Shown: positions 7,851 to 55,644, numbered from the whole stretch's first letter. The stretch is 63,492 nucleotides of DNA, filler included, from Sphacelaria rigidula (GCA_964200075.2; 8 parts of 8 records of this genome joined end to end with filler, not necessarily neighbours in it); one strand, 5' to 3'. Program-made: numbers and translations. Notes: a model not told the origin generated them from the sequence alone.

Positions 7851-7950
7851 NNNNNNNNNNNNNNNNNNNNNNNNNNNNNNNNNNNNNNNNNNNNTTAATT
7901 AATTAANNNNNNNNNNNNNNNNNNNNNNNNNNNNNNNNNNNNNNNNNNNN
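7851..7950. other. Artificial contig-joining spacer (N44-TTAATTAATTAA-N44); identical spacers at 15800-15899, 23749-23848, 31698-31797, 39647-39746, 47596-47695 and 55545-55644
   Basis: The same 100-bp spacer, with a six-frame stop linker, occurs 7 times. The segments between them are 7850, 7849 (x6) and 7848 bp, as expected for length-sorted contigs. Confidence 0.97.
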
Positions 7951-14520: not shown

Positions 14521-16365
14521 TATTTAAACAGGAGACATCCTTGGTCATTTTGGTGGAAGAAAAAACCCCTTCATGTAATCAAGGGGGTCCGAGCGGGCTA
14601 GGCCACTGCACACACGTATAGCTCGTGGCCCGTCTCGGTAATGTTTGCACACTAGCAGTTGCGGCTCTGTAATCGCGTATGCATCTTGACTGTTTGTAAG
14701 CGTCGAGGGCAACGCTAGCGTACGCAGGCGTACAGGGTGCAGCTATCCTCTCCGCTTCGAGCGTTGCGTAAACACACGCTCAACTGCGAACAAAACCCCG
14801 AACGTGGCTGATCAATCATTTTGAGCTACTGCACTCCCTGCTGATTGAAACAGGGGGAAAAAAACGGAATGTTTTGAGCGCCCGAGCGTACGTACTGCTG
14901 TGGTTTTACTCGTCTACAATATTTCCACCCTCCACCGGAGTGTTGGGTACAGCAGCTGGCCGCGGGCCCCAAACTCTAGATGATTTTTTTTGTTTTGTGT
15001 TTTATGTGCGAGGATTTCGAACATGTGCCCCTTCGGGTACGGAAGGGCAGGTGTACTGGGAAGATTGGGGAAGTATTTGGAATTGACGGCAGTTACGACA
15101 GACGCCAACGGGTACGTGAGTTGTAAGACCGAGATGACAACATGGGAATGACGTCGAACCGAATTTCAACATGCGTTCCCGCAAAGGCGAAAAACACAAC
15201 TGTTGATGGCATTTTGCATCGGCCCCGTGTGCTGCATCACGCTCAGTTGCAGCACGCTCAACAGTGTCCACAATGCTCACGCTCCGCAGATGAAGCCATG
15301 CCAGTGTCCACACGTGCTCACCTGCGGCACGCTGACTTCTACCCACAATCCCCACACTACCCACAAAACGTACGATAAGTAGAGCTGCTTTAATATGATA
15401 ACACGGCAATATTAGTGACGGGCTCCGGTTCTATTGTCAAGCCAACATTTGACACGCTCCGGTTCCACGGTGAAGTCAACATTCAAGATAACTTTTGAAG
15501 TGGTCGAGCTGTGGCAGTTCTTCAAGTAATTACGCTCGGACAAGAAATGTTTTCGACGCTGACACACGAGACCCAGCTAGCAGCTGAGGGGAAGGCAAAC
15601 TCGGCTGCGCAGTTCGGTAGCTGGGTCCCGATTTATTGACAAACGTTTCACGGTTAGGACGAATCATCAGTGGTTCGAATAACCAAATCCACGATTTCTT
15701 CGGCGTGATTGCCCAAAAGGGAGAAAAAAAGTTGACCGCTGGCCCAAAGGGCATCCACGCAATTTTTGCGCCATTCCACGTGTCTGGGCTGCGTGTACCN
15801 NNNNNNNNNNNNNNNNNNNNNNNNNNNNNNNNNNNNNNNNNNNTTAATTAATTAANNNNNNNNNNNNNNNNNNNNNNNNNNNNNNNNNNNNNNNNNNNNG
15901 GGCAGAACAAAAAAAAACAGAGAACGGACAAAAACAAAAAAACAAAAAACAAAAAACAAAAAACAAAAAACAAGGAAAATAGAACAAAAGCTTTATACAG
16001 GAATAGGCATACGCGGCAACGGTTCAGTACAGAACACAGACATACGCGGCTACTGGGTACTGCCGAGGGAAACGTGGGCAACCGGGCTACACGGGATTCA
16101 AGGAAACGAGACCACGAGAGGACAAGGAGAAGCAGGGGGAATTCTAAAACAAACACGACGAGACCAGGGGGACGACGATTGGCGGTAGGGAGAAACGCAG
16201 ACAACCGACTCACAACGGTACTTGAGAAAACGACACCAACGACAAGACAAAAACAGGGGGGGGTTGAAAGAACCCCAAAAAAATCGGAAGGAACGCAATT
16301 CGCTATCAAGATTATTCCGCTTCCCACGCCGTGTCGGGGTTGCGCAAGACAGCCGTGTCGATGTC

Positions 16366-22300: not shown

Positions 22301-23848
22301 ATCGTGCAGTGGGACCCGTGTCATCGAAGAATTGCACACTTAGTTGTACTGAGTGATCAACCGTAAGGGGAGTGGCGGCACCAAACCCGCCAAAAACACG
22401 AGGCGGAACAGTAGAAAGGCAATGTTTGTCCGCTGCTCCAGCGTTCATCCTGTGTTGCCAGCAGCTGGCTGTGATGAAAGAGTGTGGCGAGCCAGTGTCG
22501 GGCAGGGCAACGGCCATCAAAGGGCGTGTTGCATGCACTCCACTATGTATACCTATTCGGGTTGTGGAGGAGACGTCATCCATGAGTGCAGTTCCACTTA
22601 CCAAGTCCGGGCTGTATTCCGACATATGATCTGTAGCCACATCGCTCTTGTGTTGTTGGGCAATGGTACTAAAATAGACTCGAGATTGATCCTCCGGAAC
22701 GAATGTGTTTTCCGAAGGGCCGTCGTGGCATGGAGGGTTTTGCAGAGCGTGTGGTGCAGTAGACGAAAGTTGGAGTTCGTACACAGTCAGGAATGGACGA
22801 CGCCTAGGAAAGGAAGTGGATGTGGATGTTTGCAATAATTGTTTGAAGCTATGAGAAACAGGGGAGAAACAGTCCTGATCGGACTGCAATTTGGACGGCA
22901 CAGCCGGGGTTTGTCCGGCACCATGAGACATACATGCAGGGCGTAGCGGTTTTACTGTCCCAACAGTTATCAACGCTACTTTATTCTTCAACATAGATTC
23001 CGAGGGGTCGGCAGGAAGCGGACCTAATCTGTTCAGAATCTGGGAAACACCGACCTGTTCTACGACAAGGCCTTCATCCGCTGTGCCCGGTACCCGGGCA
23101 CTTTCTTGGTGGGCGGATGCAGCGGCAACTACAGGTTTACTTTCAGTGTCATCCGGAAGAGCCTTCTCCTGGTGTCGCGTATAGCGCACTCTAGAGCCGG
23201 CTGTTCCAGGGGCTCTTGGGAAGTTGGCAAGGTCAGTCCGTTCGTGGCTAGACACGTGGCGCTTGGTCGGCACTGTCGCTTGGGGTTCCTTCCCAACCCG
23301 CTGAGCTACGGAAAGCAAGGGTTCGGCACTGGCGCGCATAGTACACGAAAAATTACGATCACCAAATAAAAGGGGACCGGGTACACGCGGAATTTCGCTC
23401 GCACGTGTTACCGGGTTCGACTGGACTCCTGAGTCCTTCTCGGGGCTGGGGAGTCTCTGTAAACGTTTTATCCTACGATGAACGGTCGTAGGGGTAACAG
23501 CTACCGTATCAGAAGATGTTCTGCTTCTAAGGCGGTAGGCGCTACGCTACACGACTGTCGATTCCGCGGGGCGATCGGATCCAACTAGCGTTGATTACTA
23601 CCACTCGGAAATACAACTGGATGATCAGATCCAGTATGAAAACACTGGGGTTGGTCATTGCGCATTTGGGAGTCATGCAATGTTGCACGGGACTGTGCTG
23701 TCATGGAACCCGTCATGACAGAACGGTCAACGCTAGCGTACCCACACCNNNNNNNNNNNNNNNNNNNNNNNNNNNNNNNNNNNNNNNNNNNNTTAATTAA
23801 TTAANNNNNNNNNNNNNNNNNNNNNNNNNNNNNNNNNNNNNNNNNNNN

Positions 23849-30200: not shown

Positions 30201-31976
30201 TATTAATTTTGTGGCATTTTGTGATTTTTTCGTAGTTGGCGATTTTCTTGGGCTCTTTCCGCTTGCCACCGCATATCACATTGAGTATCTGAAGATATTT
30301 TTATGCCCTCCACATTTTGAGAAAAAAATATCATTCATACTCAATATTGAGTGACTTACGGGCTGACCGGTCATCGGGGGTCCTGCCACGTTTCGGTTCA
30401 GATTCTTACTATCCGGTATTTTCGGTCGATCGAGCATGTCCCGATCATATCTCTTAAGACATGTACAGTTTTATTTTTTTGAAATTCTACCTACCCATTG
30501 CACTAGAGCCGAAAGAAAGTGTTTCACGATCAATAACACCCTCCTGATAAACGGTGCATTTACTCGTATCTCCCGATAACACCAACTGACGCTGACTTGG
30601 GCACTGTGTTTTGATATTGATATACTTATTGTACCAAAATTTACCGACGCTAGCAATTTCGAGTTCTATCGAAGAGTAGTACGCGAGGAAAATCGCAAAA
30701 CATCCCTGAATAGTTAGACCGCCCACTACTGTACCTGAGGTGCTTGCTGTTGTGGTGAGCGCCGAGTTGGGTACTGATGTTGAGGAGCAAGTGCTGTGGT
30801 GATTGAGTGCTTGTTGAAAATGAGGACACACATCATGACTGGTATTCGCGAATCGTTCTGAGAATGATTTCAGCTTGTTATTGTGTGGTTTGTGGTCATG
30901 CTTGCGCTTGAAACATGGTTGTTGAGCGATTATGATCGTATCGCGTGTGCAGGGTAAAACTCTGGCGTACACGTGGGTATCTGGCATATGTGTGTTGCGC
31001 TGATCTGGTTGGCACGGACGATGCATGGTGTTTGCTGCGAGGAAGGTGGCATTGCATGTACTGAGTGAAATATTGGCATGCATGTGCGGATTTTCATGTG
31101 CTGAGTGGAATTTTGATAGGCATGTGCGAATCTTTGCTCGAATGGTACTGATATGAATGGTATCTGGTGACGACCTAGGGTGGGGCAGTTTTCATTATAC
31201 TGCTGTATGCTAAATGAAGGGAAGCTCGTATAATCTTGTTCGCGCAGGAACACAGTCGAATCATATTTGTGCGGTTTGCACGTACTGACTGCAGGATATA
31301 TGACATCTGCTGTTAGCGTAAACATGAGCTGAAAGATACGAAATGCGTAGGCTCGTCGTATGTGAGCAGGTATGACGCGAGTGCTTCCGGTGGTTGAAGA
31401 TAAAGACATGATGCGCGCATGCATCAATGATCTTTGACCGTGGCAAGTTTTTGTATGGATTGTCACGTGTTTGAACGAGCACGTCGTTGGTTTTTCGTTC
31501 ATGTCAGAAGGAGCATGTGGATGATGCGTCCATTTCTTCGAAGAACTGGTGCAGGTGGACTGCAAGAGTGTCGAGGAATTCATTATTTCTACATTTTGGC
31601 TGATGCACGGATGGGATATGACGGTTCAAGATCCGAACGAGATATAGATATATCTGGGATTTGCTCAAAAACAAGATTTCGAAAACGAGATCACGAGNNN
31701 NNNNNNNNNNNNNNNNNNNNNNNNNNNNNNNNNNNNNNNNNTTAATTAATTAANNNNNNNNNNNNNNNNNNNNNNNNNNNNNNNNNNNNNNNNNNNNTTT
31801 TTTTTTTTCCCTCCAGGGCGGAAACCGCTCCGGTGGCCCTTCGCCCCCCCCCCCCCCCCCACTTCCGATCCCCCCCCCCCCCCCCCCCCTCTCCCCCTAT
31901 CATAGCATAACTCGTACTCAGCTTCACTTTGTGCCTCATGACTTTCAGCGCCGCCCCGCTCTCTCCCTCCCTACAG

Positions 31977-34900
31977 GCGGTACTGCTACAACAGGCCTCC
32001 CATGAGAGAAGTAACACCGCAGCTACGGTCGCTGCGGGTGCCCCTGGCCCCCGTGACTATCGTATCGTCGCTGCAGGTCCGCAGACGAGTGCAGAGTTCG
32101 TTGCCCGCGGGATAGTGGCGGGGACCTGTCTAGAAATCCACCCCCCGGCGTCGTATCTAAAGTCAGGGGTCACAGCTGCTGCCAACAATGAAAATGCGCG
32201 ATTTTGCCCCTCCGGCAGCGGCGGTGCCGGTGTCGGTTGTGGCGTGGATGACAGAAAGAAAGAGCGGGTGGCGTATAGCATCTCCGATGTCGAAGTAGAA
32301 AGGGGTGCTATCGGTACCAGGTCCGGTGAATACAGCGGCGGGGGCAGCCCTGGCGGCATTGGCAGGTTTGAGTCCTTGACAACAGTCGCAGCGATGACGA
32401 ACGATACCTCGAGGATGAGGGATGAGGGAACGTTGGAGCCTTCAGCAACGCTAGACTACGGAAGTGATGCAGCTGGAGCTGATGTCGTCGACTCTGGAGC
32501 AAAGACGGCGTTGTCGTCGTCGGGAGTAACAACAGCACCAAGGGCAGTAGACAAAGATGGACCAAGAACAAGAACCACGAGCACTACGGGAGTGGATGGT
32601 GGGAGTAAGACAGCTCCGGACTCCAATTCTGTCTCCAGGAGGCAGCGGAGCAAGCTGCCGTTGCTGCCGATCAAACCACCGACGCATGGGTTCCATCTCG
32701 TGGATCTGCACGCGGTCGTGCGCAACTCCGTAGAGTGGCGTACCTGGTTGCCCAAGGTATTGTGAAAAGGGTACAAGAGTAGCGTTTAATAGTACGCCCG
32801 ACGGAGATATCTTTCTCAGAATGATCGGTGTCCTTTGTAGCGCTGGAAGTGTGAAAAGCAGCGACACAAGAGACAAAATTGAGTGCCTCGTCGTGGCAAT
32901 GTTCCAAAGGTGGTACAGTCTATCGGAACTTGAAGGTAACGGCCGGGATCGGCGATTGGGATGCTTCAGGTGTGCGTGTGTTTGTAGCAGACGACGCGGC
33001 GGTATTCCCGTCGCTCCGTCTACAAGTGCCGTGCCTCACCATGAGGGTCAGATGTTGCGTGGCAACTCTAATGTAGTCGGAGTTGGTGTCCCCCCAACAT
33101 ATTATTTTCGTTCTGAAATAAACCACGCGGCACACCGGCGCAAAGACGTTCGTAGAACAGCAGCCTGCGTACAAGACGCCAGCAGTCGAAACACACTTTG
33201 AACACTTTCTACGACAGCCCCCCCCCCAAAAACAAACAAACAAATAACCCAAAGCTGTCTCGAAACAAATGATCATACAGCGCCTGATGTTGGGTTCAGG
33301 TTGCATGAAGTGTCTCTCATGTAGGCGACATTGACGAGAACGAACCCAAGCGTTGGAATTCCCAGCTGTCCGTTGTGCTCGGCCTTTTCCATTTCGATTT
33401 ACGTGTAGATTTTGCCTCCCCAAACCAGCCACGTTTTTCCGGGGGGGGGGGGGGGGGGGTGTTTTAGAAAGTTTTTTTTTTGGTTTTTTTTTTCGTTTAA
33501 TTTTTCCCCTACTGCGGGCACAGGGGGAGCCAGTCTTNNNNNNNNNNGTTGTCGGTGTGGGGGTGCTCTGGGTTTGTGTGGTGGGGGGGAGTTTGGCCCG
33601 GCCGCTCGCGGCGTGTGGGGGGGGGGGGGGGGGGGGGGGGGCTGTTGTAGAAAGTATCTTTATTGGTTGTTCATTTCGTCTAATTGTGCCCCTACGTCGC
33701 GAACAGGTAGAGCCAGTCTTCCGTGTTGGCGACAACCGAGACACGGTCTTGCTGGGGCTCGTTCACGCTCTTGGCGGGCGTTTGTCTTGCTCGTCCAAGC
33801 ATGACATCAAGGCCGGAACGTATGCCACACGGAGTGTAAGCCGATCGCCTCAGGCTTCCGTCACCACACCGCTGCGTCTCTTCGATCGCCACATTTGCCG
33901 CCCTCCTGCGCTGTTGCGGGCAGCAGCGATGGCTGGGGTCAGCTTGTACGAGGTAATGATTTTAGTTACCCCTGCCGCCGCCGCCGCCGCCGCCGCGCCT
34001 ACCGTGAAGCTGAGAGCACTTTTGATACCATTGCGAGTTTTGTGTTGGTTGATTCCTTGCATGTAGTATTTTAATTGCAACAAGTCATCACTTGCTACAT
34101 GGTGCTTATCTTCAGGGTTTCCGTTCCTGTCCCACCTCACTTTGCCCCCTTGTACCAGGTCGACTGCGTCGATGAGTTGTGCAGGATTGCGAAGGCCAGA
34201 CATCGTACAAGCATCTCCGCCACTCGACCGTCCACCACAGCAGTGTCCAGCATCGACGCAATTCCTCGCAAAGAAGAGGTGTCGAAGGTTGCAGCGCAAC
34301 GACCACCTGTCGAGCACCGAGCGACCGGTGCGACCCCCGGTAGCGGCAGTGGTGTCTACGATGTAGCAGAGGCCCTCATTCGTCTCACTGTGCCTCCCCG
34401 CATTCCGCGAGTTCAGGTTCCCGGCGTGACTTCATGTCAGCCGTCTTCGCTCCAGGACAAGACCTTGTCGACTCCGCTGGAGACAAATTTTGGTGCAAGC
34501 TTTGACGGTGTAGTTGAGATCGTACAGAGGGTGGCAGCAACAATGGCGACAAAGCCGAGTGCCGTGCAAGGTACTGCGAGTAGGGGTGGCGAAAGCGGGC
34601 GCCATTGCCGTGGCGACGCAATTGACGACGGTGCGTGTCGAACACGTGGCGGCGCTCAGTGTCGTCCTTGGGCTAGCTTCTTTCCGTCGATTGTCGGTTT
34701 CTCGATCGATGTAGGGCAGGTGTGCTTGGATGACGCTATCGCAGCGGAGGCCGCGTTGGAGGTAACAACAGCAGAAACGCCAACAGCGGCAAGCATGTGG
34801 ACCATCAAGGATCCTGTCAAAGATAGTACTGTTGGCTCTGCTTATACTCCCGCCCCAGAGGCTGCCGTCCGGTTACCTCCGGGACAAGCAGTCGCCTCCG

Positions 34901-36021
34901 CCACCTTAGCAGAGGACATCGAGGCCGCTGTTGTGTTCGCGATGGAGGCAGCCCGCCGTGCAACCAACGCTTTTGCGGCAGCCGCGGCGAAAAACGGCGA
35001 ACAAGCTGCATCAAGGGATAGCCATGTCGCTCCTCGTGGGGCGTGCACCAGCGCAGCACAATCGCCGCCTTTTTGTTTTCGCCGGTTGCATATAACGGGG
35101 CTGGGTAACGGGGGCGCGCGTGGAGAGCCTCTGGCGGCGCTGAAGACAGCTCTGTCTCGGCACCTACCCGCGCTGCTCGCCCGCAGCACGGGAGCATCGA
35201 ATAGCGTTGGTGGTGGTATCGGCATAAGCAGACCTCTGTTGGTTTCAGCTGACGCCACCGAACATTTTGTCGCTGGGGGCGTGTGTTCCACTGCTGCATC
35301 CATCATCGGCCGTAAGGATGTGGTTTCTGCAATCTCTAATGACCCTACGCCGTCGTCAACGCCGCCGACGCCGCCATGTGATCGTCACAGCCATGACACT
35401 GGCGACAATAAAAATGAACATGTTGTTGTTCGCGAGGCGGGTAATGAGGCGGCGACGACTAAAGAAAACGGCCCAACTTGCAATGTGGGCGAGGGGCGAT
35501 CGGGAGCGATGTATTACATAGACGATGGCTGCTACGGATCCTTAAGCGGCGCATTGCTCAGGGCGGAGCCTGTGCAGCCCATACCTTTGGTTGATCCTCG
35601 TCGTCAAAGGTCACCGACTGGCCCATATTGTTCCAAACGTCGACCTGATGATGACAACGTCACCTACGAATACCAGTATCATTATCATCATCGGCAGCAA
35701 GAGCAGCGGGGTGAACCCACCGCTAAGCCGCCCGGCACTGCCGCCAGTTCATCGGGCGACAAATTACACATCTCTGCCGCTGCTTCCGCTGCACCGTGTA
35801 CGATCTGGGGGCCGACTTGTGATGGTCTGGATTGCGTATCTCGAGTTACCCTTCTGCCGGCCGAACTGAGGCCAGGAAGAGATTGGCTCTTTTTCCCGGA
35901 GCGAGGCATGCGGGCCGGGGCCGATGTGTCTGGCTTCAACGGGCTAAGGCCACTTGAGTCGATTTACTGCGTTCGGCAGTCGGGCGCTTCGCTTTCTGCC
36001 GCCCCTTTCGAACGACAATAA
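31977..36021 (+). CDS. Ornithine decarboxylase-fold (fold-type III PLP family) protein, predicted unable to bind PLP; exons 31977-32756, 33707-33952 and 34159-36021; 5' exon(s) lie outside the contig
   Basis: Three phase-0 exons with canonical AG/GT sites give an open frame of 962 aa. Colinear ODC motifs: GFHLVDL...WRTWLPK/VEPVFRVGDN, SCSSKHDI, VDCVDEL, ALIRL, TNFGAS, VGFSIDVG, YYIDDGCYGS, TIWGPTCDGLD, DWLFF...SGFNG. Confidence 0.9.
33202..33472. mobile_element. MITE family A copy in an intron of the ODC-like gene
   Basis: Starts ACACTTTCTACGACAGCCCC and the body matches 41754-42001. The right end lies in low-quality sequence near the small N gap. Confidence 0.75.
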
Positions 36022-36498
36022 TGGGTTGTACTGACGTTTTGCCCTCGTATTCCTGTCAAAAACTAACCCTATATTTAGGCCAAGTATGTTGAGTGTTGCG
36101 TGAGCCAAGTGAGCTCGTGTGTCTGCACTTGAGGACACATCTTCCTCGCGGGGAGCGCAGACATGATATCGAGCCGAAGAGTGGACGAAACTGCCGTTAC
36201 AATGTTTTAGCTTGTGTAAATTACAGGTGACATAGCCTACCCGACGTTGTTTCGAGGTGACAAGAATCCTGCAAGTCCATTGTTCAACTTGCGGAGAACA
36301 TCTAGCAGTCTAGAGTTTTCGTGTAAGACAGCTTGATGCTTACAGTTCTTCGCAATCTCTTCATTTCCAACATCTCGCGGTGCCATTGGCATTTTCACGA
36401 GTTATGTCACTGGCACTTAGCGGGAGGACCACATTTGAACATTCCTTGACACGTAGACACGTCACGTAGGCAGATTGTAGCATTCCAACATGTATTAA

Positions 36499-36938
36499 CA
36501 CGGGATCTTACAAATTGGGGATGGATCTTTTTTTGGGGATGAGAAACCCGGAGAATTCAAATCTTCGTATCCACACCAAATCTTCGAAACATGGTTTCAT
36601 TTCTTCACCTACTGATGGCTATTGACAACTGCTACACGCCATAGAAATTTGGATTTCGATAACCGAAACGTTGGGGTCCGAGGTCAACAACCAATTTTTG
36701 GGAATTCCGGCTGTCCGAACGGACGCCAAAATGGTTCCGTAAATGGTTTTTGACCTAGGACCCCAACATTTCCGTGGTCGAAATCCAACTCTCTACGGCA
36801 TGTAGCAGTTGTCAATAGCTATCAGTAAGTGAAGAAATGGAACCATATTTTGAAGATTTGATGTGGATACGAAGATTTCAATTCTCCGGGTTTCTCATCC
36901 CCAATAAAAGATCCATCCCCAATTTGTAAGATCCCGGG
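36499..36938. mobile_element. Foldback MITE with ~195-bp inverted arms
   Basis: CGGGATCTTACAAATTGGGGATGGATCTTT is mirrored by AAAGATCCATCCCCAATTTGTAAGATCCCG. Flanks can be read as TTAA/TTTA (piggyBac-like) or TATT/TATT. Confidence 0.88.
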
Positions 36939-37401
36939 TTTATTTCATGTTCTCCAGGTGAGTATTTAAACACGATCGGTTTTACTGCACGCGCACAGGT
37001 ATCAGTGCTTCTCAAAAGTCTTGCCTTCCGCCAAGTTTTGCCTTTGATCGATAGGGGGGACGTATTGCTCTTCAATATGTTCATCTTCGTTTTCGAGTTG
37101 TGTTTCTTTGTGTTGTTTCGAACGTGTGTGTCGCACGTTGATTGATGTTACTGTTGGCGGGATTTTCTTGAGTTGCAGACCCACTTGCCCCTTCTTATGC
37201 TGTAGTAGGCGATGCGCCTCCTGGGGGTGTACTCATGATCTTGCCTGTTAGTGATAAGACTATTGACCTCGCATCCCTACAAATCCGTCACGGAGCACGC
37301 CGGGTTTTCGCCGGACCAGGCGTTTGGGGGTGAATGAAAGGAGTTGAGAGTCTTCCACGAGCACCCGTGCTTGGTAATTAAGTTTCCCTGTTGTATGCTG
37401 T

Positions 37402-37727
37402 GCCCCGGTGGTGTAATGATCCGACTGTTGCTATTAGGGTTGAGAAAACGAGGGTTCGATTCCCGATGCGTTGGTTTTTTACTTCGTAATGTCTGATTTT
37501 CACCGTGGAAGGCGTGAAAACGCGAGTGAACATAGTCGACTAAGTTTGTTTGACGTGAGTTGACGCGGGACGGGAGTGCTGATGGTCATGATCCAATCCG
37601 CGAGACCAAAATGCAAGGCGTGTGCCGGGGGAGAGATGTGTTGATCCGGTGAGACCACGGACTCATCCCGAGGAGGGGAAGTGGTTCAAAGTGCGACGCA
37701 TAAAATAAAAAATAATAATATAAAAAA
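37402..37727 (+). mobile_element. tRNA-derived SINE-like element
   Basis: A-box-like TGGTGTAATGA (37409), B box GGTTCGATTCC (37453), an unrelated body and an A-rich tail at 37700-37727. No intact cloverleaf. Confidence 0.6.
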
Positions 37728-38689
37728 TGTGTAAGAGACCGTATGTGTTGCATTTAGGGGTGGGTGGAAAGAGTGGTGGGCCCTGTACATACACCTGTGT
37801 GTGATGATTACCTCCATTCTTTAGGAGATGGTGCGGGTTGTACGTCTATCTGGCGACCACGGCTGGGTTCGTCGGGGAGTAATTGATGTGCGACAAACAA
37901 TAAATCATCTGTACCAAAAAGAGGCATCTTGAGGCACGACAGCAGCTTTTTTCGCAGTCCAGCTCTGGGCAGTGAGGTTATGTTGAAGCGCTCTCCACAT
38001 TTATCTTGTGTGTTGCGTGACCAGGCCAATGGTGTCTGCAAAAGGCTGGCTCGTGAGCTGATCGATCCTGCTGGATAGTCTCTCAACATTGTTGCGGCCT
38101 TGTGTTCCCCCGTTGGCTTCAGGCGGGTTGGGGCTGGCTTCGGGTCGGGTTATGAATCCGATGCATTAAAACAGGAGATCCTGAAAAAACAGGAACGAAT
38201 TCTTTCTACGGCAACGAAAAAAAGAGATGAGGCTCGCAATAGTTCGAAATGGTACATCCCCTACGACGAGTAAATATGCCCAACAGCCCGAGAGGTTCAA
38301 AACAACCGATGTGGCTCTTGCAACTTACCGACAACTTATTTCGGAAATAAATTTCAAGAACTGCCATCAACCTCATCAACAGTTTTCCACCGACCACAAA
38401 CGAAAAAACGCACGTGAAACATATCTAAGTGATCCGAAAGGAGCTGTTGGGTTCTGAAATTTCATTAATAGTATATTATGTTGATTTTTTCGGCCAGCGG
38501 CAAAAACAAGTCCAGGCCTGAACATCGAGCGCAGTACAGTAGTAGCCCAGAGACAAACGGTCCGCAGTTCATTTTCAATAGCATCACAGCATCTGGGCTC
38601 GCTTCTTCAACCTTTTGGGGACCTCCAGTCTCCTCGGTGCCGTATAGGGGTACCATGTCGCACAATTTCGACCCCCATTTTTTTGTTGT

Positions 38690-39125
38690 CGTTCCCACCT
38701 TTCGGGATCCCCTTACTATACTTGTCACGACTATAGATATCTCACCGGTTTCTGCAATGTGGGGAAATGAGGTTTGAATCCTCCACAGATACGTGTGAGT
38801 ATGGTAAAATTTCACTCATCTCCAATCACGTGGAGGGGAGGAGTCCCCTCTGCAGCAAGCAGTGAAGTTCCGGCGTGAACTCATATTTGTTTCATGAATA
38901 TATTTGATGCTGCTTGTTCCCACTTTTCGAGGTACCCTTTTCATATTAGTCGCAAGTAGAGATATCTCACCGGTGTTGCCACTACTACTGTGGGAAAAGG
39001 AACGTTGAATCCTCCGCAGATATTGATGAGTGTGGTAAATCGTCATATGTACCCGTTACATGGAGGGGAGGCATCCGCTGTACAGCAAGCAGTGAAGTTC
39101 CGCCGAGAAGCACTCATATATTTGT
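38690..39125. repeat. Imperfect tandem duplication, period ~225 bp
   Basis: GTTCCCAC...AGATATCTCACCGGT...TGGAGGGGAGG...CAGCAAGCAGTGAAGTTCCG occurs twice. Confidence 0.75.
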
Positions 39126-41753
39126 TCGATGTTTGCTCCTACTGATGATATACTTTCATGCAATTTAACTACAACAAGCTCAGCAGCTTCAGTGTATAAC
39201 CAATCCTTTCGTCAGATTGAGAATCCAGCGTTTGATTGGGATTGAGCTTTTGATAGGAAGACGCTGCTATTATGTGAGCCAATAATGGACGACACACTGG
39301 CGTCTGGATGTCGCGTGTAATGGTGCCGATTCAGCAGATCAACTACCGTAGCGGTCACGGGGTGATAAGAATGACGTTGCGGAACACATTAGGTCAAAGA
39401 GTCGTTAGCTGCACCAGGACTAATGGGGAACGATACGCGTTTTACTGAGATACCACTAATAACCGTCGGCATGAGAATGTTAACCATCGAAGTATTCCTC
39501 TCGTTCATGCGCCGCTCGATGCATGCGAGTGTAGGACATTAACGCATCGCGATTTCTAATAATCGTATGCTCGTGTTCATTTGCTTTCGGATTATATATT
39601 AACAGCCGATCATCTATGTTGAGGATGGTGCTTTTGATTGAGGATGNNNNNNNNNNNNNNNNNNNNNNNNNNNNNNNNNNNNNNNNNNNNTTAATTAATT
39701 AANNNNNNNNNNNNNNNNNNNNNNNNNNNNNNNNNNNNNNNNNNNNGGAATAAAACAAATGACTCACTTCAAGCGAATGATCAAAGCCATTCTCAATCGT
39801 ATCATCTACTCTCAATCTCACGAAAACACTGTTAGTAGCGCAGTGCAGAATAAAATATTACCATCGCATCAGAGTACGGCGTTAACACTTCTTATCCGCT
39901 TGGCGAACCCCGTGCAAAGCGCCGTGCAAAGCGCAGCTCTGCGAGCATAGACAGTTAAGTAGGGCAAAGTTGCAAATACAGACTGGACTCGCGAACACAG
40001 GAAATACTATGCGACAAAAAGTACAACGATACGAGTACACATACTCTGCACCCTAAAAACCTCGCATTTGGCAGCGATGTTATCGGCTATGTTTGTGGTT
40101 CTACACCATCTAACGGGAGGACTCACCTTGATATATGTTGGCACCGATTTCCTGGCCGGTTCGTGGTTGCTCTCTACTCTATCCCTATGCAAAGCTTCAC
40201 GAGTAAATGAACCAGGAAGTCGATTATGGGTCGTGGTTGCTCTCTTCTCTATCCCTACGCAAAGCTTCACGGGTCAAAGAACCGGGAAGTTGATTACGTA
40301 CTTCAACACCCCCTCTACCTCAGCCACGGACGGCGTCGGCACGCGAAAGTGAGGACAACGAATAAAGCAGCAATGAAGCTGAACATTGTTGAGGGTGTTG
40401 AAAATGATCCGGAAAGCCGGTCGTTGCGTGTGATGCCTCCAACCTCCAAAAGTACCTCGATCGAAGTCGCGACAGTTAAGTCTGATAAGTTCAATCAAGA
40501 CTCGCTCTGGTCAAAAGAAGTTGAATTGGGAATGATTCGAGTGCGCCCAGAGACAGAGACAAAACACAACGCCATGAGCACCAATGAAGCTGAAACTTGT
40601 TGAGGGCATCTCGATTGATGTTAGAAGAGTAAAGGGATAGGTCTTTCGCGCAACGCGGCTTCGAATCAAATCGGGAGGGAAAGTGCGTGGTTCGGAGCTC
40701 TATAATGAGGCCCGGACAGATAGGACAGGACACTTTTTGAACTTCGGTTCAGTAGAAGCCTTTTCAGCCCTAAGGTCCTCAAAGGAAATTTCTACTTGTT
40801 TGCCTTGAGAAGCGGCCTCAGAGGGTATGAAAACAACGATCAGCTAAATACCAGAGGTAGCGGTTCGCCAATTATCGAATGTTGTTGAGATCTGCTTGAG
40901 CTCAGTTAGTGGTGTCGAACAAAGTTGACTCCAAGGACAAGTCACCAACTACCCGGTCTCCTACACGAGCTTGACAACCACCACTATTCACTTTGGGGGC
41001 AACATGTCTCGGTGTCAGTACGAGTTGAGCCAGCCTAAAAACGAATTTATACTCTCAAGGCGATATCTCAACGACACAGACGAGTTGGGCCATGATCCGC
41101 ATATCGTCTCATCAGGGGGAAGGTGCTCATCTGCTCAAAACTCTGGGCCAATTTTTTGTCCTTGATTTAACTCCATGTCTAGTAATTCCTATACCGTACG
41201 GAAATAGTGTCCACACTAAACTCTATATGGAACCCCGAACGATCTATTGAGCGGATAATGGCGATTGTTGTCGAGGACCTTCCCTGGAACATGAGATGAT
41301 CCCCTCACCTGCCTCTGATTCGTAATCGATCTCGACATATGGCGCACAAACGATTCCGTACTAAACTCAATAATTTACGAGCAGAGGCACTAGATGCCCT
41401 AAATCTGGATATCGCGTCTCAGTTGTTGAGAGTCGTGCGGTGGAATTTAGTATGGAGAACCGCTAGTGTATAATACAGCTTATTCACACAGCTTTTAAGT
41501 TATTTTTACGTTTTTTCGTGTTTTTAGGAGTGTTTTGAGAAGAAATGAACATTACTCTTGGGCCTTATCTCAATTTTGAGAGTTGTGATTTGAAACTTGG
41601 CATGGAGAACGACAGAGGTATCCTCAATAAAAAAAGCAAATGGGCCTTAATTTGTTCTTCTCGGGGGGGAGAGGTTCGGGCGTTTTCGTGAAAAAATGGT
41701 CGTCACCATACTAAAACGCCCTAAATCAGCAAAACAAATGAATCAAAACCAAC

Positions 41754-45894: not shown

Positions 45895-47784
45895 CCCCCT
45901 CACGGCTGTATTAACAGCACTATGTAGGGCGCAGGAGTCCCGCCGGTACTCACATGCACAACTCTACACACCCCAGCACGAGAACCAGCCTGACAAATCC
46001 AGCAGCAACCTGCATCAATCGACCACAAAATGTAACTTTGAGTCGTGTATGAAGGGGACGTATATGAACCATGATTCAAGCCAAACGGCGGCGAATAGAT
46101 ATGTGAACTGGGGTATTGGGACAACTCAATGTAGGGTTCAACAGGCGAGACAAAAATCGGCACCGTTTTGGTCAAAAGGCGAGAGCTGATAGAGCTGATA
46201 CCGTTACAAAGCTACGGTAGGGCTAATAGACATGGGACGAAGTGCCTGACGCAGAAGGTCTACAACTATCGTGCTCGGATCGTACAGCTTAGATCGTCTA
46301 TGTCATTTCCGTGCCCACAGGACTGGTTCAACAAACGACACGCGACCGACCACTGTGCTGTGTGCGTCTAACCTCAAACGTGATACACGTGAGTAACGTC
46401 AGTTCCACGTGCATAATACCTCTCAGTCATGAACGCTGGACATCGTAATTCCATACGACTTGAGTGAAGTTCAAAAGGCGGGCAGCATACGCGGTTTATC
46501 CCGTGCTTGGCGTGCTGCCATGCGCTTCTGGAAGATACTGTACTACCGTGCACTTTTTCCTGTGCCAAAAACCCTTTTGTTTACTTCTTCTTGGCGAGCC
46601 TTCTCGCTCATTCACGTGGAGTACATCCACTTTCTGACCACGGCCGGATTCATCGCGAATCCCGTTCGCGTGTGACGATTAACTTATGTGATAATCTGGG
46701 GTAAGTGTGTACTGCGGGCGATGACGGTACGGATTGTTAGCTACTGCACGAATACCGCGTCACTCGAACCGCACAGTGCATGGTGACAGAAAACAATAAT
46801 TACTCGCCTCCCTACCCTTGGAGTATCAAACGAATTATATAGTAAACAATGTCTGCGTGAGATCGGGGGTAGAGGATACGATTGAGAATGAAAAGCGATC
46901 AATTAGTGAATGAACCGTTTCAGTTCCGAAGTGCTCCTCCACGAGGCCCGATATTCGTCCTGTAGTAGCTTGCCACTGAGGCTCTTGATATCCCTGAGTG
47001 GGATATCGACGTGTAGCTGTAAGCACACGGCAGTGATGGGGGCAAAGAAAAGCACGCATGGAATTACAAATTGGCCACTCTCAACCCGCGCTCTACTCTC
47101 AATCTCACGACAAGGTTGTGAGTAGTTGAAATTGAGTGTGGATGCTAGAATCCGGGTTCAACGTAGCTGATTGGAGAGCTCTCTTTCATTTCTTCCCCTG
47201 ATGGTACAGTATCATAATGCTGATTCTCCACGTCGGGATCGTCCCACACCAGGGTGGTGCGCCCAAATGAGCCCGACCTCTCGAACCTGTGGTCACAGAC
47301 GTAAGCTCGCCTTCCTTTTCACCGTCACTACCATACCATCTTTGCATGACATGGAATCGCTCATTTAGCGTCGTATTCTGCGACTCCGAAAACCAACCAA
47401 TATGTACATGTATCATTTCACTTTTTCTCCACTTTTGCCGAGTTTTCTCAGGCGGCAGGGCATCTCATCACGCGCTTTCTTTTGCAGTGCACGAAAAAGG
47501 CGCAGCGGTACATTACCTTTCAGGTTCGGGTGTCATCTGATACCTGCGGCGCGTGTTCTGGCCATCGAAACTCGCCCGCACTGGCTCTTTTTCCCNNNNN
47601 NNNNNNNNNNNNNNNNNNNNNNNNNNNNNNNNNNNNNNNTTAATTAATTAANNNNNNNNNNNNNNNNNNNNNNNNNNNNNNNNNNNNNNNNNNNNCGTCC
47701 CGGCATTGTAGGGATGCGAGGTCAATGGTGTTATGACTATGGCATGCATGATCATGAGTACACCCCCCCATCGTAGGATGACTC

Positions 47785-54745: not shown

Positions 54746-55644
54746 TAAGTATTGTGGCGGGATGTAGTCAAGGTGCTAAGATATCTCAATCATAGTGCCT
54801 GCTGGGGGCCTGGCTGGTGTTTTTTAGTTCTTTTGCTGGCTTGCCGACACTAAATAATTCCTTCAACACGGGCTCGTCGTCTGGAGCCAAGTTCAACGCC
54901 CTTGAAACAAGTACGCCACGTTTGTACCAGGCGATCTGCAAGGTATACCATCCAGGCGTCCCGCGATCGTATCTTACATCTTCTTGCCCCGCTGCTGTAC
55001 TCCTCCAATGAGGTCATTTTCACCGTGTAAGGTTCAAGTGCGGCTTGCATAAGGCAAGGTCTTACTCACACATCGGGATATCCCATACATCATCACTCCT
55101 CTCGCTCCGTGTACGGTTCATTAAGGGTCGCTGCTCCACTAATGCTTCCCAGTCGACCTTCGCTGCCGAAACCTTGGCCAATGATTCCCCCACACTATGT
55201 ACCAGCTTCTATCCTTCAAGATTTCAAGAAGCGTACGTACCGCTTGGTGCTCCTTCTCGTTGGTCATATGGTCGGTCATTAGTAAGGTGCTTCATGAGCG
55301 CAGTAGGTTTTGACGTCAATGTCATGCATCATCCACCCCTTCCCTTCATTTGACGCCTGTACACCTAACGTCGGGAATCTTAGGAGAATATCTGATCAGA
55401 TTTCCATTCGTCCAATGGAACCGGTGAAGCTGTCCGGGTATCTGACCACGAGATCCAATCTCCATGTGAATTATAGCCTCTGCCAGACGATCTGGACAAG
55501 AGGGCTATTCAGTGAGGGACTTCTCCAGAATCCACTGGCCTCACNNNNNNNNNNNNNNNNNNNNNNNNNNNNNNNNNNNNNNNNNNNNTTAATTAATTAA
55601 NNNNNNNNNNNNNNNNNNNNNNNNNNNNNNNNNNNNNNNNNNNN

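Follow-up and report, generated by a model that had tools for sequence, protein, structure and literature searches.

A gene of Sphacelaria rigidula (GCA_964200075.2), found in the 63,492-nucleotide stretch of DNA analysed here (hereafter, the window), is very probably an expressed nuclear and catalytically dead paralog of the polyamine enzyme ornithine decarboxylase (ODC) of eukaryotes, and a member of an old family that extends over at least four ochrophyte classes. The protein, referred to below as pseudo-ODC, is without the Schiff-base lysine (K69) and most of the PLP-binding residues of the enzyme, and is therefore no PLP-dependent decarboxylase by itself; the residues that an ODC subunit donates to the active site of its partner are retained.

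Gene structure, transcripts and fold

The window is made up of eight pieces of about 7849 bp each with N linkers between them, and the piece carrying the gene begins at 31798. Three exons in the window encode 962 amino acids (Table 1). Matching contigs were found in three runs of a single study (X1, X2 and X3), which are not recorded as RNA and were called RNA-type from contigs without introns. In each of these runs one contig covers 31976/7-32754/6, 33705/7-33950/2 and 34157/9-36488, both introns being gone; both are present in X5, a DNA-like run. The initial annotation had read an intact, correctly spliced ODC-fold frame with an exon beginning at 31977, and the transcripts bear this out, as both splice joins are found in X1-X3 and the contigs enter directly behind the acceptor. 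The RNA-type contigs extend a further 595 nt or so in the 5′ direction, into sequence outside the window, and thus the frame, while intact, is N-terminally incomplete in the window. Tblastn searches of the window with orthologs and canonical ODCs as queries found neither upstream exons nor a second ODC gene. An ATG at 31938 was considered as the start and ruled out, because the contigs enter at the acceptor and the upstream exon or exons lie outside the window.

Table 1. Positions in the window of the exons, introns and diagnostic residues of the pseudo-ODC gene (ODC residue numbering).
Feature	Position	Strand	Remark
Internal coding exon, 260 codons	31977-32756	+	match to RNA-type contigs begins at 31976/7, behind an AG acceptor
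Intron 1, GT..AG, 950 nt	32757-33706		950-nt skip in X1-X3, absent in X5
Exon, 82 codons	33707-33952	+	encodes VEPVFRVGDNRD; carries G at the K69 position, S for D88, D for Y110
G for Schiff-base Lys69	33728-33730	+	
S for D88	33785-33787	+	
D for Y110	33884-33886	+	
Intron 2, GT..AG, 206 nt	33953-34158		206-nt skip in X1-X3
Last coding exon, 620 codons and TAA	34159-36021	+	remaining barrel with long inserts, then C-terminal sheet domain
D134	34162-34164	+	
N for K169	34486-34488	+	
D for H197	34708-34710	+	
HITGLG for DIGGG	~35089-35106	+	
D for E274	35251-35253	+	
E for R277	35260-35262	+	
K294	35314-35316	+	
Y323	35533-35535	+	
R for D332	35560-35562	+	
WGPTCDGLD	35806-35832	+	C360 at 35818-35820
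R for Y389	35911-35913	+	
FNG	35935-35943	+	
3′ untranslated region, at least to 36488	36022-36488	+	extent of RNA-type contigs in X1-X3

The first intron contains a high-copy repeat at about 33249-33570, where read depth reaches thousands, as well as G and T runs and a 10-N assembly gap at 33538-33547. It also holds, at about 33440-33537, a degenerate copy of the acceptor and of the first 14 nt of the following exon; the true and degenerate acceptor regions are 80% identical.

The first exon in the window encodes the equivalent of the N-terminal strand and helix of ODC (DYRIVAAGPQTSAEF...), next a low-complexity stretch of some 190 inserted residues, and then barrel strand 1 (GFHLVDLHAVVRNSVEW...LPK); the matching insert of an ortholog, P0018, is modelled at pLDDT below 50. 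Pfam detected PF00278 in the window copy (5e-11), in exon 3 only, and PF02784 was detected in P0018 (4e-9). The best sequence match in the PDB was T. brucei ODC (9e-9), and exon 2 alone had no PDB match. Set against 151 canonical ODCs in a profile-profile comparison with hhalign, the brown-algal alignment scored Prob 100 and E 1e-40 over 381 columns, with residues 231-956 of the protein paired to ODC 32-418. In the AF2 model of P0018, 312 residues reach a pLDDT of 90 or more; Foldseek matched this model best to human and T. brucei ODC (E 5e-18, TM 0.67-0.79, target-normalised), and a search of the ESM Atlas returned the same fold again. The two-domain fold of group IV (fold-type III) PLP decarboxylases, an alpha/beta barrel and a C-terminal beta-sheet domain, is thus present. 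Full-length orthologs carry in addition a conserved N-terminal helical extension (residues 115-190 of P0018, pLDDT about 66-93).

Own-site and partner-donated residues

Residue numbering was verified on the 461-aa mammalian ODC (P0294). With hmmalign and the canonical HMM the long members aligned in their C-terminal part only, and hhalign and an E-INS-i alignment were used instead. In the window copy the changed residues are K69G, D88S, E94D, K169N, H197D, S200Q, G235T, E274D, R277E, Y331L, D332R and Y389R, and the retained ones are D134, R154, K294, Y323, C360, D361, D364, F397, N398 and G399; the residue calls of the initial annotation, lost and kept alike, were all reproduced by the hhalign mapping. 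Its account of the GGG loop stands in part: the loop is altered (G235T), but the reading LHITGL gives way to one in which G236 and G237 are retained around an inserted L (HITGLG). No alternative exon that would supply AVKCN at the K69 position appears in the transcripts, and of the four brown-algal rows covering this position three have G and one has S. PMC5518511 names 20 residues as critical for ODC, of which eleven differ in the window copy (K69, D88, E94, K169, H197, S200, G235, E274, R277, D332 and Y389), as do four of the five that the same source lists as important for dimerisation (K169, R277, D332, D364 and Y389).

Could the protein still be an enzyme, that is, a divergent decarboxylase or another catalyst working with a different lysine or without PLP? 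This is very improbable. C360 and D361 are indeed invariant, and 13 of 40 rows have a lysine one residue past position 69, but all 13 belong to the diatom-type group, and the brown-algal members have D or S there. Moreover, D88, H197, S200, E274, R277, D332 and Y389 are changed, the phosphate loop is remodelled by G235T and an inserted residue, and the family scores 62-203 bits against the canonical ODC HMM, as compared with more than 400 bits for full-length enzymes.

In ODC each active site draws on two subunits, and a K69 mutant and a C360 mutant can make good each other's defect. Both points are restated in a paper on planarian ODCs (PMC5574924). Sorted by the subunit they serve, the window copy retains every one of the seven partner-donated residues, against only three (R154, G236 and G237) of the 13 own-site PLP and substrate residues, the other ten being K69, D88, E94, H197, S200, G235, E274, R277, D332 and Y389 (Fisher p=0.003); in K69-bearing homologs aligned likewise, all 13 are intact in 180 of 187. 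The contrast holds within the C-terminal domain, since the residues lost there include D332 and Y389, both of which serve the own site of the subunit, as well as their neighbours H333, M386, A388 and T390. Against the background of that domain, however, the retention of partner-donated residues is not significant (7/7 vs 21/33 kept, p=0.08), and two other K69-less ODC homologs among the matches, P0112 and P0138, also keep 7/7 each, so that the loss of own-site and retention of partner-donated residues is not diagnostic. The initial annotation had taken this asymmetry as the mark of a heterodimer; the pattern itself holds across the family (see below), but it does not single out that arrangement.

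Family spread and the remodelled pocket

K69-less relatives were found in three brown algae, Chrysoparadoxa, a raphidophyte and a diatom (Dactyliosolen). On the evidence of these sequences the family spans the ochrophytes, with at least four algal classes, and is old and not restricted to brown algae; it predates the split between brown algae and diatoms. In a tree with 42 canonical ODCs, which included no AZIN sequence, it forms a separate group with 100% SH-aLRT support. A search from a compact member, P0043, returned 18 matches, mostly canonical ODCs, and no further named members. The pattern for which the initial annotation had proposed a test in orthologs from Phaeophyceae and other stramenopiles is found: none of the 40 full-length pan-family rows has K at position 69, and Y323, C360, D361, D364, F397, N398 and G399 are kept in 40/40, a retention that is partly ascertainment, because the profile by which the match list was ranked is dominated by the Y323, WGPTCD and FNG motifs. 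Nor have brown-algal orthologs lost WGPTCD or FNG: Y323, C360, D364, F397, N398 and G399 are kept in 31/31 rows and D361 in 30/31. Also conserved family-wide are the C-domain loops YYxDDGxYGS, WGPTCDGLD and FNG, the block D134/E138/R141, within the best-conserved part of the barrel (131-141), and K294.

These data bear on whether the gene is a decaying pseudogene or an annotation artefact, as might be suspected from its long low-complexity inserts and from the assembly gap and repeat in intron 1. That suspicion is refuted, and its probability is negligible: the 962 codons are open, spliced transcripts occur in three runs, the 31 orthologs share 23 invariant columns (G525 to A783 of P0018), with the C-terminal motifs invariant in all 31 covering rows save for D361, and the family occurs in four algal classes. 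The view that this is not a decaying copy, already taken in the initial annotation, is thereby upheld.

The former own site of the subunit has not drifted freely. In the 31 brown-algal rows the residues that replace it are invariant (GFSIDVG, RRLHxTGLGxGGAxxEPL and VSADATE), and they are partly common to brown algae and their diatom-type relatives, which argues that the site was remodelled and not abandoned. Derived states across the family include Y110D and K141R (40/40 each), E94D (95%), E274D (93%) and H197D (75%). Probably, as judged from these residues, the dead site is a conserved and more acidic pocket (D94, D110, D197 and D274) with a binding role of its own. Such conserved replacements argue for a function of the own pocket, and equally for a role as a homodimer or in ligand binding. 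Pseudo-ODC might accordingly be a self-contained pseudoenzyme that never pairs with ODC: as a homodimer, or with a partner other than ODC, it would bind a ligand, for example a polyamine or another cation, between the acidic barrel mouth and the C-domain loops, and serve as sensor, scaffold or regulator. We regard this as possible though doubtful. In its favour are the invariant replacements at the PLP site, the family-wide acidic states, and the N-terminal helical extension, conserved and confidently modelled in P0018. There is also a precedent in mouse ODCrp (gm853), which, as described in PMC5518511, has no decarboxylase activity and homodimerises, neither forming heterodimers with ODC nor binding antizyme, and in which the cysteine equivalent to C360 matters for stability. 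Two observations speak against it. C360 and D361, with their catalytic and substrate-binding roles, are invariant with no own PLP site to serve, and K169, the salt-bridge partner of the invariant D364, varies within the family (in 32 brown-algal rows, S 9, A 8, V 5, N 2 and others). Since this position is free in brown algae, the constraint on D364 is not explained by K169 within the pseudo-ODC family.

Possible partners and known inactive homologs

The three conserved C-domain loops are those that an ODC subunit presents to the barrel of its partner. We tentatively infer that pseudo-ODC is a non-catalytic subunit or regulator that retains the head-to-tail dimer contact of ODC, a reading that is plausible without being probable. 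The most economical choice of candidate partner would be a catalytic ODC. In an asymmetric heterodimer, one complete site would combine K69 and PLP of the partner with C360, D361 and F397 of pseudo-ODC, the other site being dead, and pairing could activate, stabilise, localise or restrain the enzyme. Canonical ODC and pseudo-ODC both occur within diatoms as a group, as the cluster of P0121 includes Attheya and a family member comes from Dactyliosolen. The best 120 of 7839 matches to a canonical query, P0062, include animals and oomycetes and name no K69-intact ODC of brown algae, which is no evidence of absence. The initial annotation had named four findings that would speak against a heterodimer. 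Three were looked for, namely a lack of orthologs or expression, an alternative exon restoring AVKCN, and orthologs that lose WGPTCD or FNG, and none was found; its interpretation is partly supported, and the heterodimer survives as a putative mechanism. A stronger version, in which an obligate asymmetric heterodimer controls putrescine synthesis in ochrophyte algae, an ancient 'half-site donor' supplying C360, D361 and F397 while its acidic pocket acts as a polyamine sensor that tunes the working site, is unlikely. If true, such a donor would be a prozyme-like feedback device in place of the animal and fungal antizyme system.

The same conservation of the interface would be seen if pseudo-ODC were an inhibitory partner, a dominant-negative subunit that ties up catalytic ODC in dimers of lower activity or stability. 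Titration of this kind is one of the options of Ivanov et al. (2010) according to the papers that cite them, as quoted in PMC5574924, and in transfected cells ODCrp repressed endogenous ODC activity (PMC5518511). We consider it rather unlikely, given that a pure inhibitor needs no invariant C360, D361 and F397 (40/40 rows), and that no brown-algal ODC is named among the best 120 of 7839 matches mentioned above.

AZIN1 and AZIN2 of vertebrates are likewise inactive ODC homologs of the polyamine pathway, and AZIN1 also retains the GPxCD loop and F397/N398. Pseudo-ODC, an inactive ODC homolog with F397 and Y323 retained, could then be a decoy that binds an antizyme-like inhibitor of ODC and so shields the catalytic enzyme, and its barrel is best conserved in the 131-141 block. 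F397 contacts antizyme, and Y323 is close to the antizyme surface (PMC5518511). Yet only one of the seven antizyme-binding determinants (Q119, A124, N125, Q129, E136, V137 and M140) in the 117-140 element of ODC is kept, and these positions vary within the family; the family falls outside the canonical ODC clade, in the tree without AZIN sequences; and a limited literature search found no published report of antizyme in ochrophytes. Such a decoy is quite improbable, in line with the opinion of the initial annotation that a classical antizyme inhibitor fits less well.

Inactive ODC homologs that may pair with ODC have already been proposed. Ivanov, Firth & Atkins (2010, J Mol Evol 70:289), as cited in PMC5518511 and PMC5574924, described inactive eukaryotic homologs in which critical residues, of 18-20 considered, are substituted, and proposed that these arose repeatedly and regulate ODC as antizyme inhibitors or by heterodimerising. 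The window copy, an ODC-fold paralog with substitutions at critical residues, is an inactive homolog in their sense; from what the citing papers relate, its family is far more diverged (62-203 bits against a canonical HMM, and 11/20 critical residues changed in the window copy), carries long inserts and an N-terminal extension, and is older than the split between brown algae and diatoms. Mouse ODCrp, also an inactive ODC homolog, keeps all 20 critical residues, whereas pseudo-ODC has 11 of them changed; by analogy, its reported failure to heterodimerise with ODC would count against the heterodimer model for pseudo-ODC (PMC5518511). In planarians, ODC5 is C360V and ODC6 is K69S, and PMC5574924 puts forward that a paralog lacking K69 but intact on the C360 side could, together with a partner, form one working and one dead site. 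The pairing logic is that of the heterodimer model, but the planarian proteins are recent paralogs mutated in complementary fashion, and the proposed partner of pseudo-ODC is a normal enzyme. In trypanosomatids, the AdoMetDC prozyme and a dead deoxyhypusine synthase paralog hetero-oligomerise with their active paralogs and control them (PMC5201418, PMC3663545). They resemble the model as dead paralogs of polyamine-pathway enzymes; as these sources present them, however, they have other folds and act by allosteric relief of autoinhibition, not by donation of active-site residues, and the pseudo-ODC heterodimer is only putative.

Our literature searches yielded no publication that describes an inactive paralog of ODC from brown algae or diatoms, groups in which the control of polyamines is almost unstudied. 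In a review table (PMC6356823) Phaeodactylum is credited with two 'ODC' genes, with no remark on either; one may be of the pseudo-ODC kind, in which case reconstructions of algal pathways may count too many enzymes. The family is a clean, testable case of what selection keeps once half of a shared active site is lost, and should pseudo-ODC indeed pair with ODC, the polyamine pathway would have a third example of control by a dead paralog.

Structure of the ODC-like gene

The 8 pieces of the window, each of ~7849 bp, are joined by linkers of the form N44-TTAATTAATTAA-N44, and one of them holds the ODC-like gene, for which sequence reading and translation give three coding exons separated by GT..AG introns. 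Contigs from four public sequencing runs were compared with this gene over 31800-36600. Three runs from one study (X1-X3; that these are RNA is our guess only) each provide a single contig, of 3952-4113 nt, which skips 950 and 206 nt at GT..AG, and a DNA-like run from a different study (X5) retains both introns; the splice junctions read initially from the sequence are matched by contigs. Moreover, the depth of X1-X3 is 33-48 across most exonic bins versus 0-2 in the repeat-free part of intron 1 (32766-33248), a pattern as given by cDNA. The X1-X3 contigs extend ~595 nt past 31976, into sequence missing from the window; thus, the acceptor at 31977 is internal, as the initial annotation had it, and the N-terminus is encoded outside the piece that holds the gene. 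A coding start at the ATG at 31938 was rejected, since the contigs enter at the acceptor and carry on upstream. No upstream exon turned up in the rest of the window when orthologs were used as tblastn queries, and because the preceding piece lacks these exons, adjacent pieces need not be contiguous in the genome. The window encodes 962 residues of the protein, and the 3' UTR is at least 467 nt long.

Coordinates of the gene, of the linkers and of neighbouring repeats
Feature	Position	Remark
Linkers	7851-7950, 15800-15899, 23749-23848, 31698-31797, 39647-39746, 47596-47695, 55545-55644	
Piece holding the ODC-like gene	31798-39646	
Coding exon 1	31976/7-32754/6	matches of X1-X3 contigs
Coding exon 2	33705/7-33950/2	matches of X1-X3 contigs
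Coding exon 3	34157/9-36488	matches of X1-X3 contigs; includes the 3' UTR
Codon at K69 position	33728-33730	G
C360 codon	35818-35820	retained
Stop codon	36019-36021	
Acceptor-like copy	33440-33537	intron 1
Repeats or low-complexity runs	31800-31960, 33249-33570, 36497 onward	

The gene is flanked and interrupted by high-copy repeats or low-complexity runs, in which contig depth is thousands to about a million, versus ~40-60 for the gene. In intron 1, the ~100 nt just before a 10-N gap are 80% identical to 33600-33720, a part made up of a G-run, a pyrimidine tract and the acceptor together with 14 nt from the start of the exon with the K69 position. Either the exon boundary has a degenerate tandem copy here, or an assembly artefact has arisen at a repeat; the acceptor-like copy is unused in the X1-X3 transcripts.

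Fold and active-site residues

Single-sequence searches detect the C-terminal part only: in Pfam, exon 3 matches PF00278 at 5e-11 and exons 1 and 2 have no match, and the top PDB sequence match, T. brucei ODC (9e-9), is made through WGPTCDGLD...FNG, MYYIDDGCYGS and DCVDEL. An hhalign comparison of 32 aligned brown-algal sequences with 151 canonical ODCs gave 381 aligned columns (Prob 100, E 1e-40), with residues 231-956 of the protein against 32-418 of ODC. AlphaFold2 modelling of P0018, a full-length ortholog from Scytosiphon promiscuus, gives 312 residues a pLDDT >=90, in a beta domain and a barrel of regular strands and helices, and every long insert a value below 50; with this model, the best PDB matches in Foldseek are human and T. 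brucei ODC (E 5e-18, target-normalised TM 0.67-0.79). The N-terminal extension of P0018, which lies outside the window, has predicted helices (residues 51-71 and 115-190, pLDDT up to 93) and no Pfam domain; it is common to members from brown algae through the diatom-type ones, with motifs such as SxxAW...LxxRL.

Residue numbering was anchored on P0294, a 461-aa mammalian ODC in which 22 of 22 reference residues fall at their textbook numbers. The losses and retentions listed in the initial annotation are all reproduced by the hhalign mapping: the window copy carries K69G, D88S, K169N, H197D, E274D, R277E, Y331L, D332R and Y389R, and retains D134, K294, Y323, C360, D361, D364, F397, N398 and G399. 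Beyond that list, E94D and S200Q are changed and R154 is retained, and the phosphate loop reads G235T, G236, an inserted L, then G237.

Relatives and age of the family

A search with exon 3 returned 31 proteins at E <=0.001 among 7999 scored candidates, including P0018 (1054 aa, PF02784 and PF00278) and P0030 from Choristocarpus tenellus (902 aa), the others being mostly single-exon ORFs. Their alignment, in P0018 numbering, has 23 invariant columns within G525-A783 and ~90 more that are nearly invariant, with conserved stretches GFSIDVG, FxxRRLHxTGLGxGGAxxEPL, VSADATE, MYYIDDGCYGSLSGALLR, CTVWGPTCDGLDCV and FNGL. The profile built from it, searched against 1.84 billion representatives, gave 1495 matches at E <=0.001 and 20 at <=1e-30; below the brown-algal members ranked many proteins of 500-1000 aa with WGPTCDGLD and lacking AVKCN and GGG. 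Cluster members include Discosporangium mesarthrocarpum (P0032), Chrysoparadoxa australica (P0043, compact, 529 aa), Chattonella subsalsa (P0055 cluster) and the diatom Dactyliosolen fragilissimus (P0035), and the family spans six named species of four ochrophyte classes. In 13 of 40 family members, P0038, P0040, P0041 and P0044 among them, the K69 position is directly followed by a lysine (VTKN, VQKN); all 13 are in groups labelled diatom-type by likeness only, and a Gly-rich insert, GCGGFGGGLGLGT, precedes their FNG.

Against a canonical ODC HMM, full-length enzymes score above 400 bits and family members 62-203 bits. Two other K69-less proteins, P0112 and P0138, which have R at that position, score near-canonical (418 and 466 bits) and probably represent inactive ODC paralogs that arose independently in other lineages. 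In a tree made by a quick method from 396 columns, with 29 members of the family and 42 canonical ODCs, a branch with an SH-aLRT support of 100% sets apart the canonical sequences, which include some from animals, fungi, oomycetes and a diatom (Attheya cluster), and brown algae, Chrysoparadoxa and P0037 group together (98%), the deeper branching order being unsure because of long branches. Derived states are common to the family (Y110D and K141R in 40/40, E94D in 95%, E274D in 93%, H197D in 75%); the dead paralog was thus most likely present before diatoms and brown algae diverged.

Own-site and partner-donated residues, and function

The initial annotation had proposed that own-site residues are lost and partner-donated ones kept, as in a prozyme-like subunit that would complete the active site of a catalytic ODC. 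The asymmetry is present in the window copy, which keeps 3 of 13 own-site and 7 of 7 partner-donated residues (Fisher p=0.003), and orthologs agree with it: none of the 40 full-length members has K at position 69, and Y323, C360, D361, D364, F397, N398 and G399 are kept in 40/40, a retention that is partly ascertainment because matches were ranked by a profile weighted most by these motifs. The 31 brown-algal rows keep the same seven, with D361C in one row as the single exception. Of 118 columns with 90% or higher conservation in canonical ODCs, 31/76 are kept in the barrel and 28/42 in the C-domain, whose losses include own-site D332 and Y389 and their neighbours H333, M386, A388 and T390. 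Three findings count against the heterodimer model, as does the ascertainment noted above: set against the other conserved C-domain columns (21/33 kept), the 7/7 is non-significant (p=0.08), P0112 and P0138 also keep 7/7, and the "lost" own-site positions are not drifting, their replacements being conserved. The conserved replacements would suit a self-contained binding role for a remodelled pocket, a possible if doubtful function that ranks just after the heterodimer.

Conserved family-wide are 131-141 (VDxxDExxR), K/R294, 316-325, 356-364 and 397-399, which we take, from ODC structures of mouse, human and T. brucei, to be the subunit interface and the active-site portion that a subunit contributes to its partner. 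D364 is invariant, and brown algae vary freely at the position of its partner residue, K169 (in 32 rows, S 9, A 8, V 5, N 2 and others); since a catalytic ODC would still offer K169, these residues would favour heterodimerisation over a homodimer with the canonical contacts. K169, R277, D332, D364 and Y389 are listed as important for dimerisation in PMC5518511. No sequence named as brown-algal was among the best 120 of 7839 matches to canonical ODC, and no K69-intact ODC lies in the window; canonical ODC is present in a diatom. An AZIN-like role is argued against, as just 1 of the 7 antizyme-binding determinants quoted in PMC5518511 is retained. A prozyme-like heterodimer subunit is the single most economical reading of the conserved features, and we put it forward tentatively.

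Topical literature searches found no report on inactive ODC paralogs in either brown algae or diatoms. In PMC5518511 and PMC5574924, Ivanov, Firth and Atkins (2010) are cited for numerous ODC homologs of independent origin that are substituted at critical residues, proposed to be antizyme inhibitors or to form heterodimers with ODC. Among the systems compared, planarian ODC5 (C360V) with ODC6 (K69S) follows the same pairing logic, as a proposal (PMC5574924), mouse ODCrp forms homodimers and binds neither ODC nor antizyme (PMC5518511), and trypanosomatids have a prozyme and a DHS paralog (PMC5201418, PMC3663545). A microalgal review has two 'ODC' entries for Phaeodactylum (PMC6356823), one of which may belong to the dead-paralog family. 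The window protein is a new, strongly diverged inactive ODC homolog, its general principle being already in print, and is very likely a genuine, expressed and ancient ODC pseudoenzyme.
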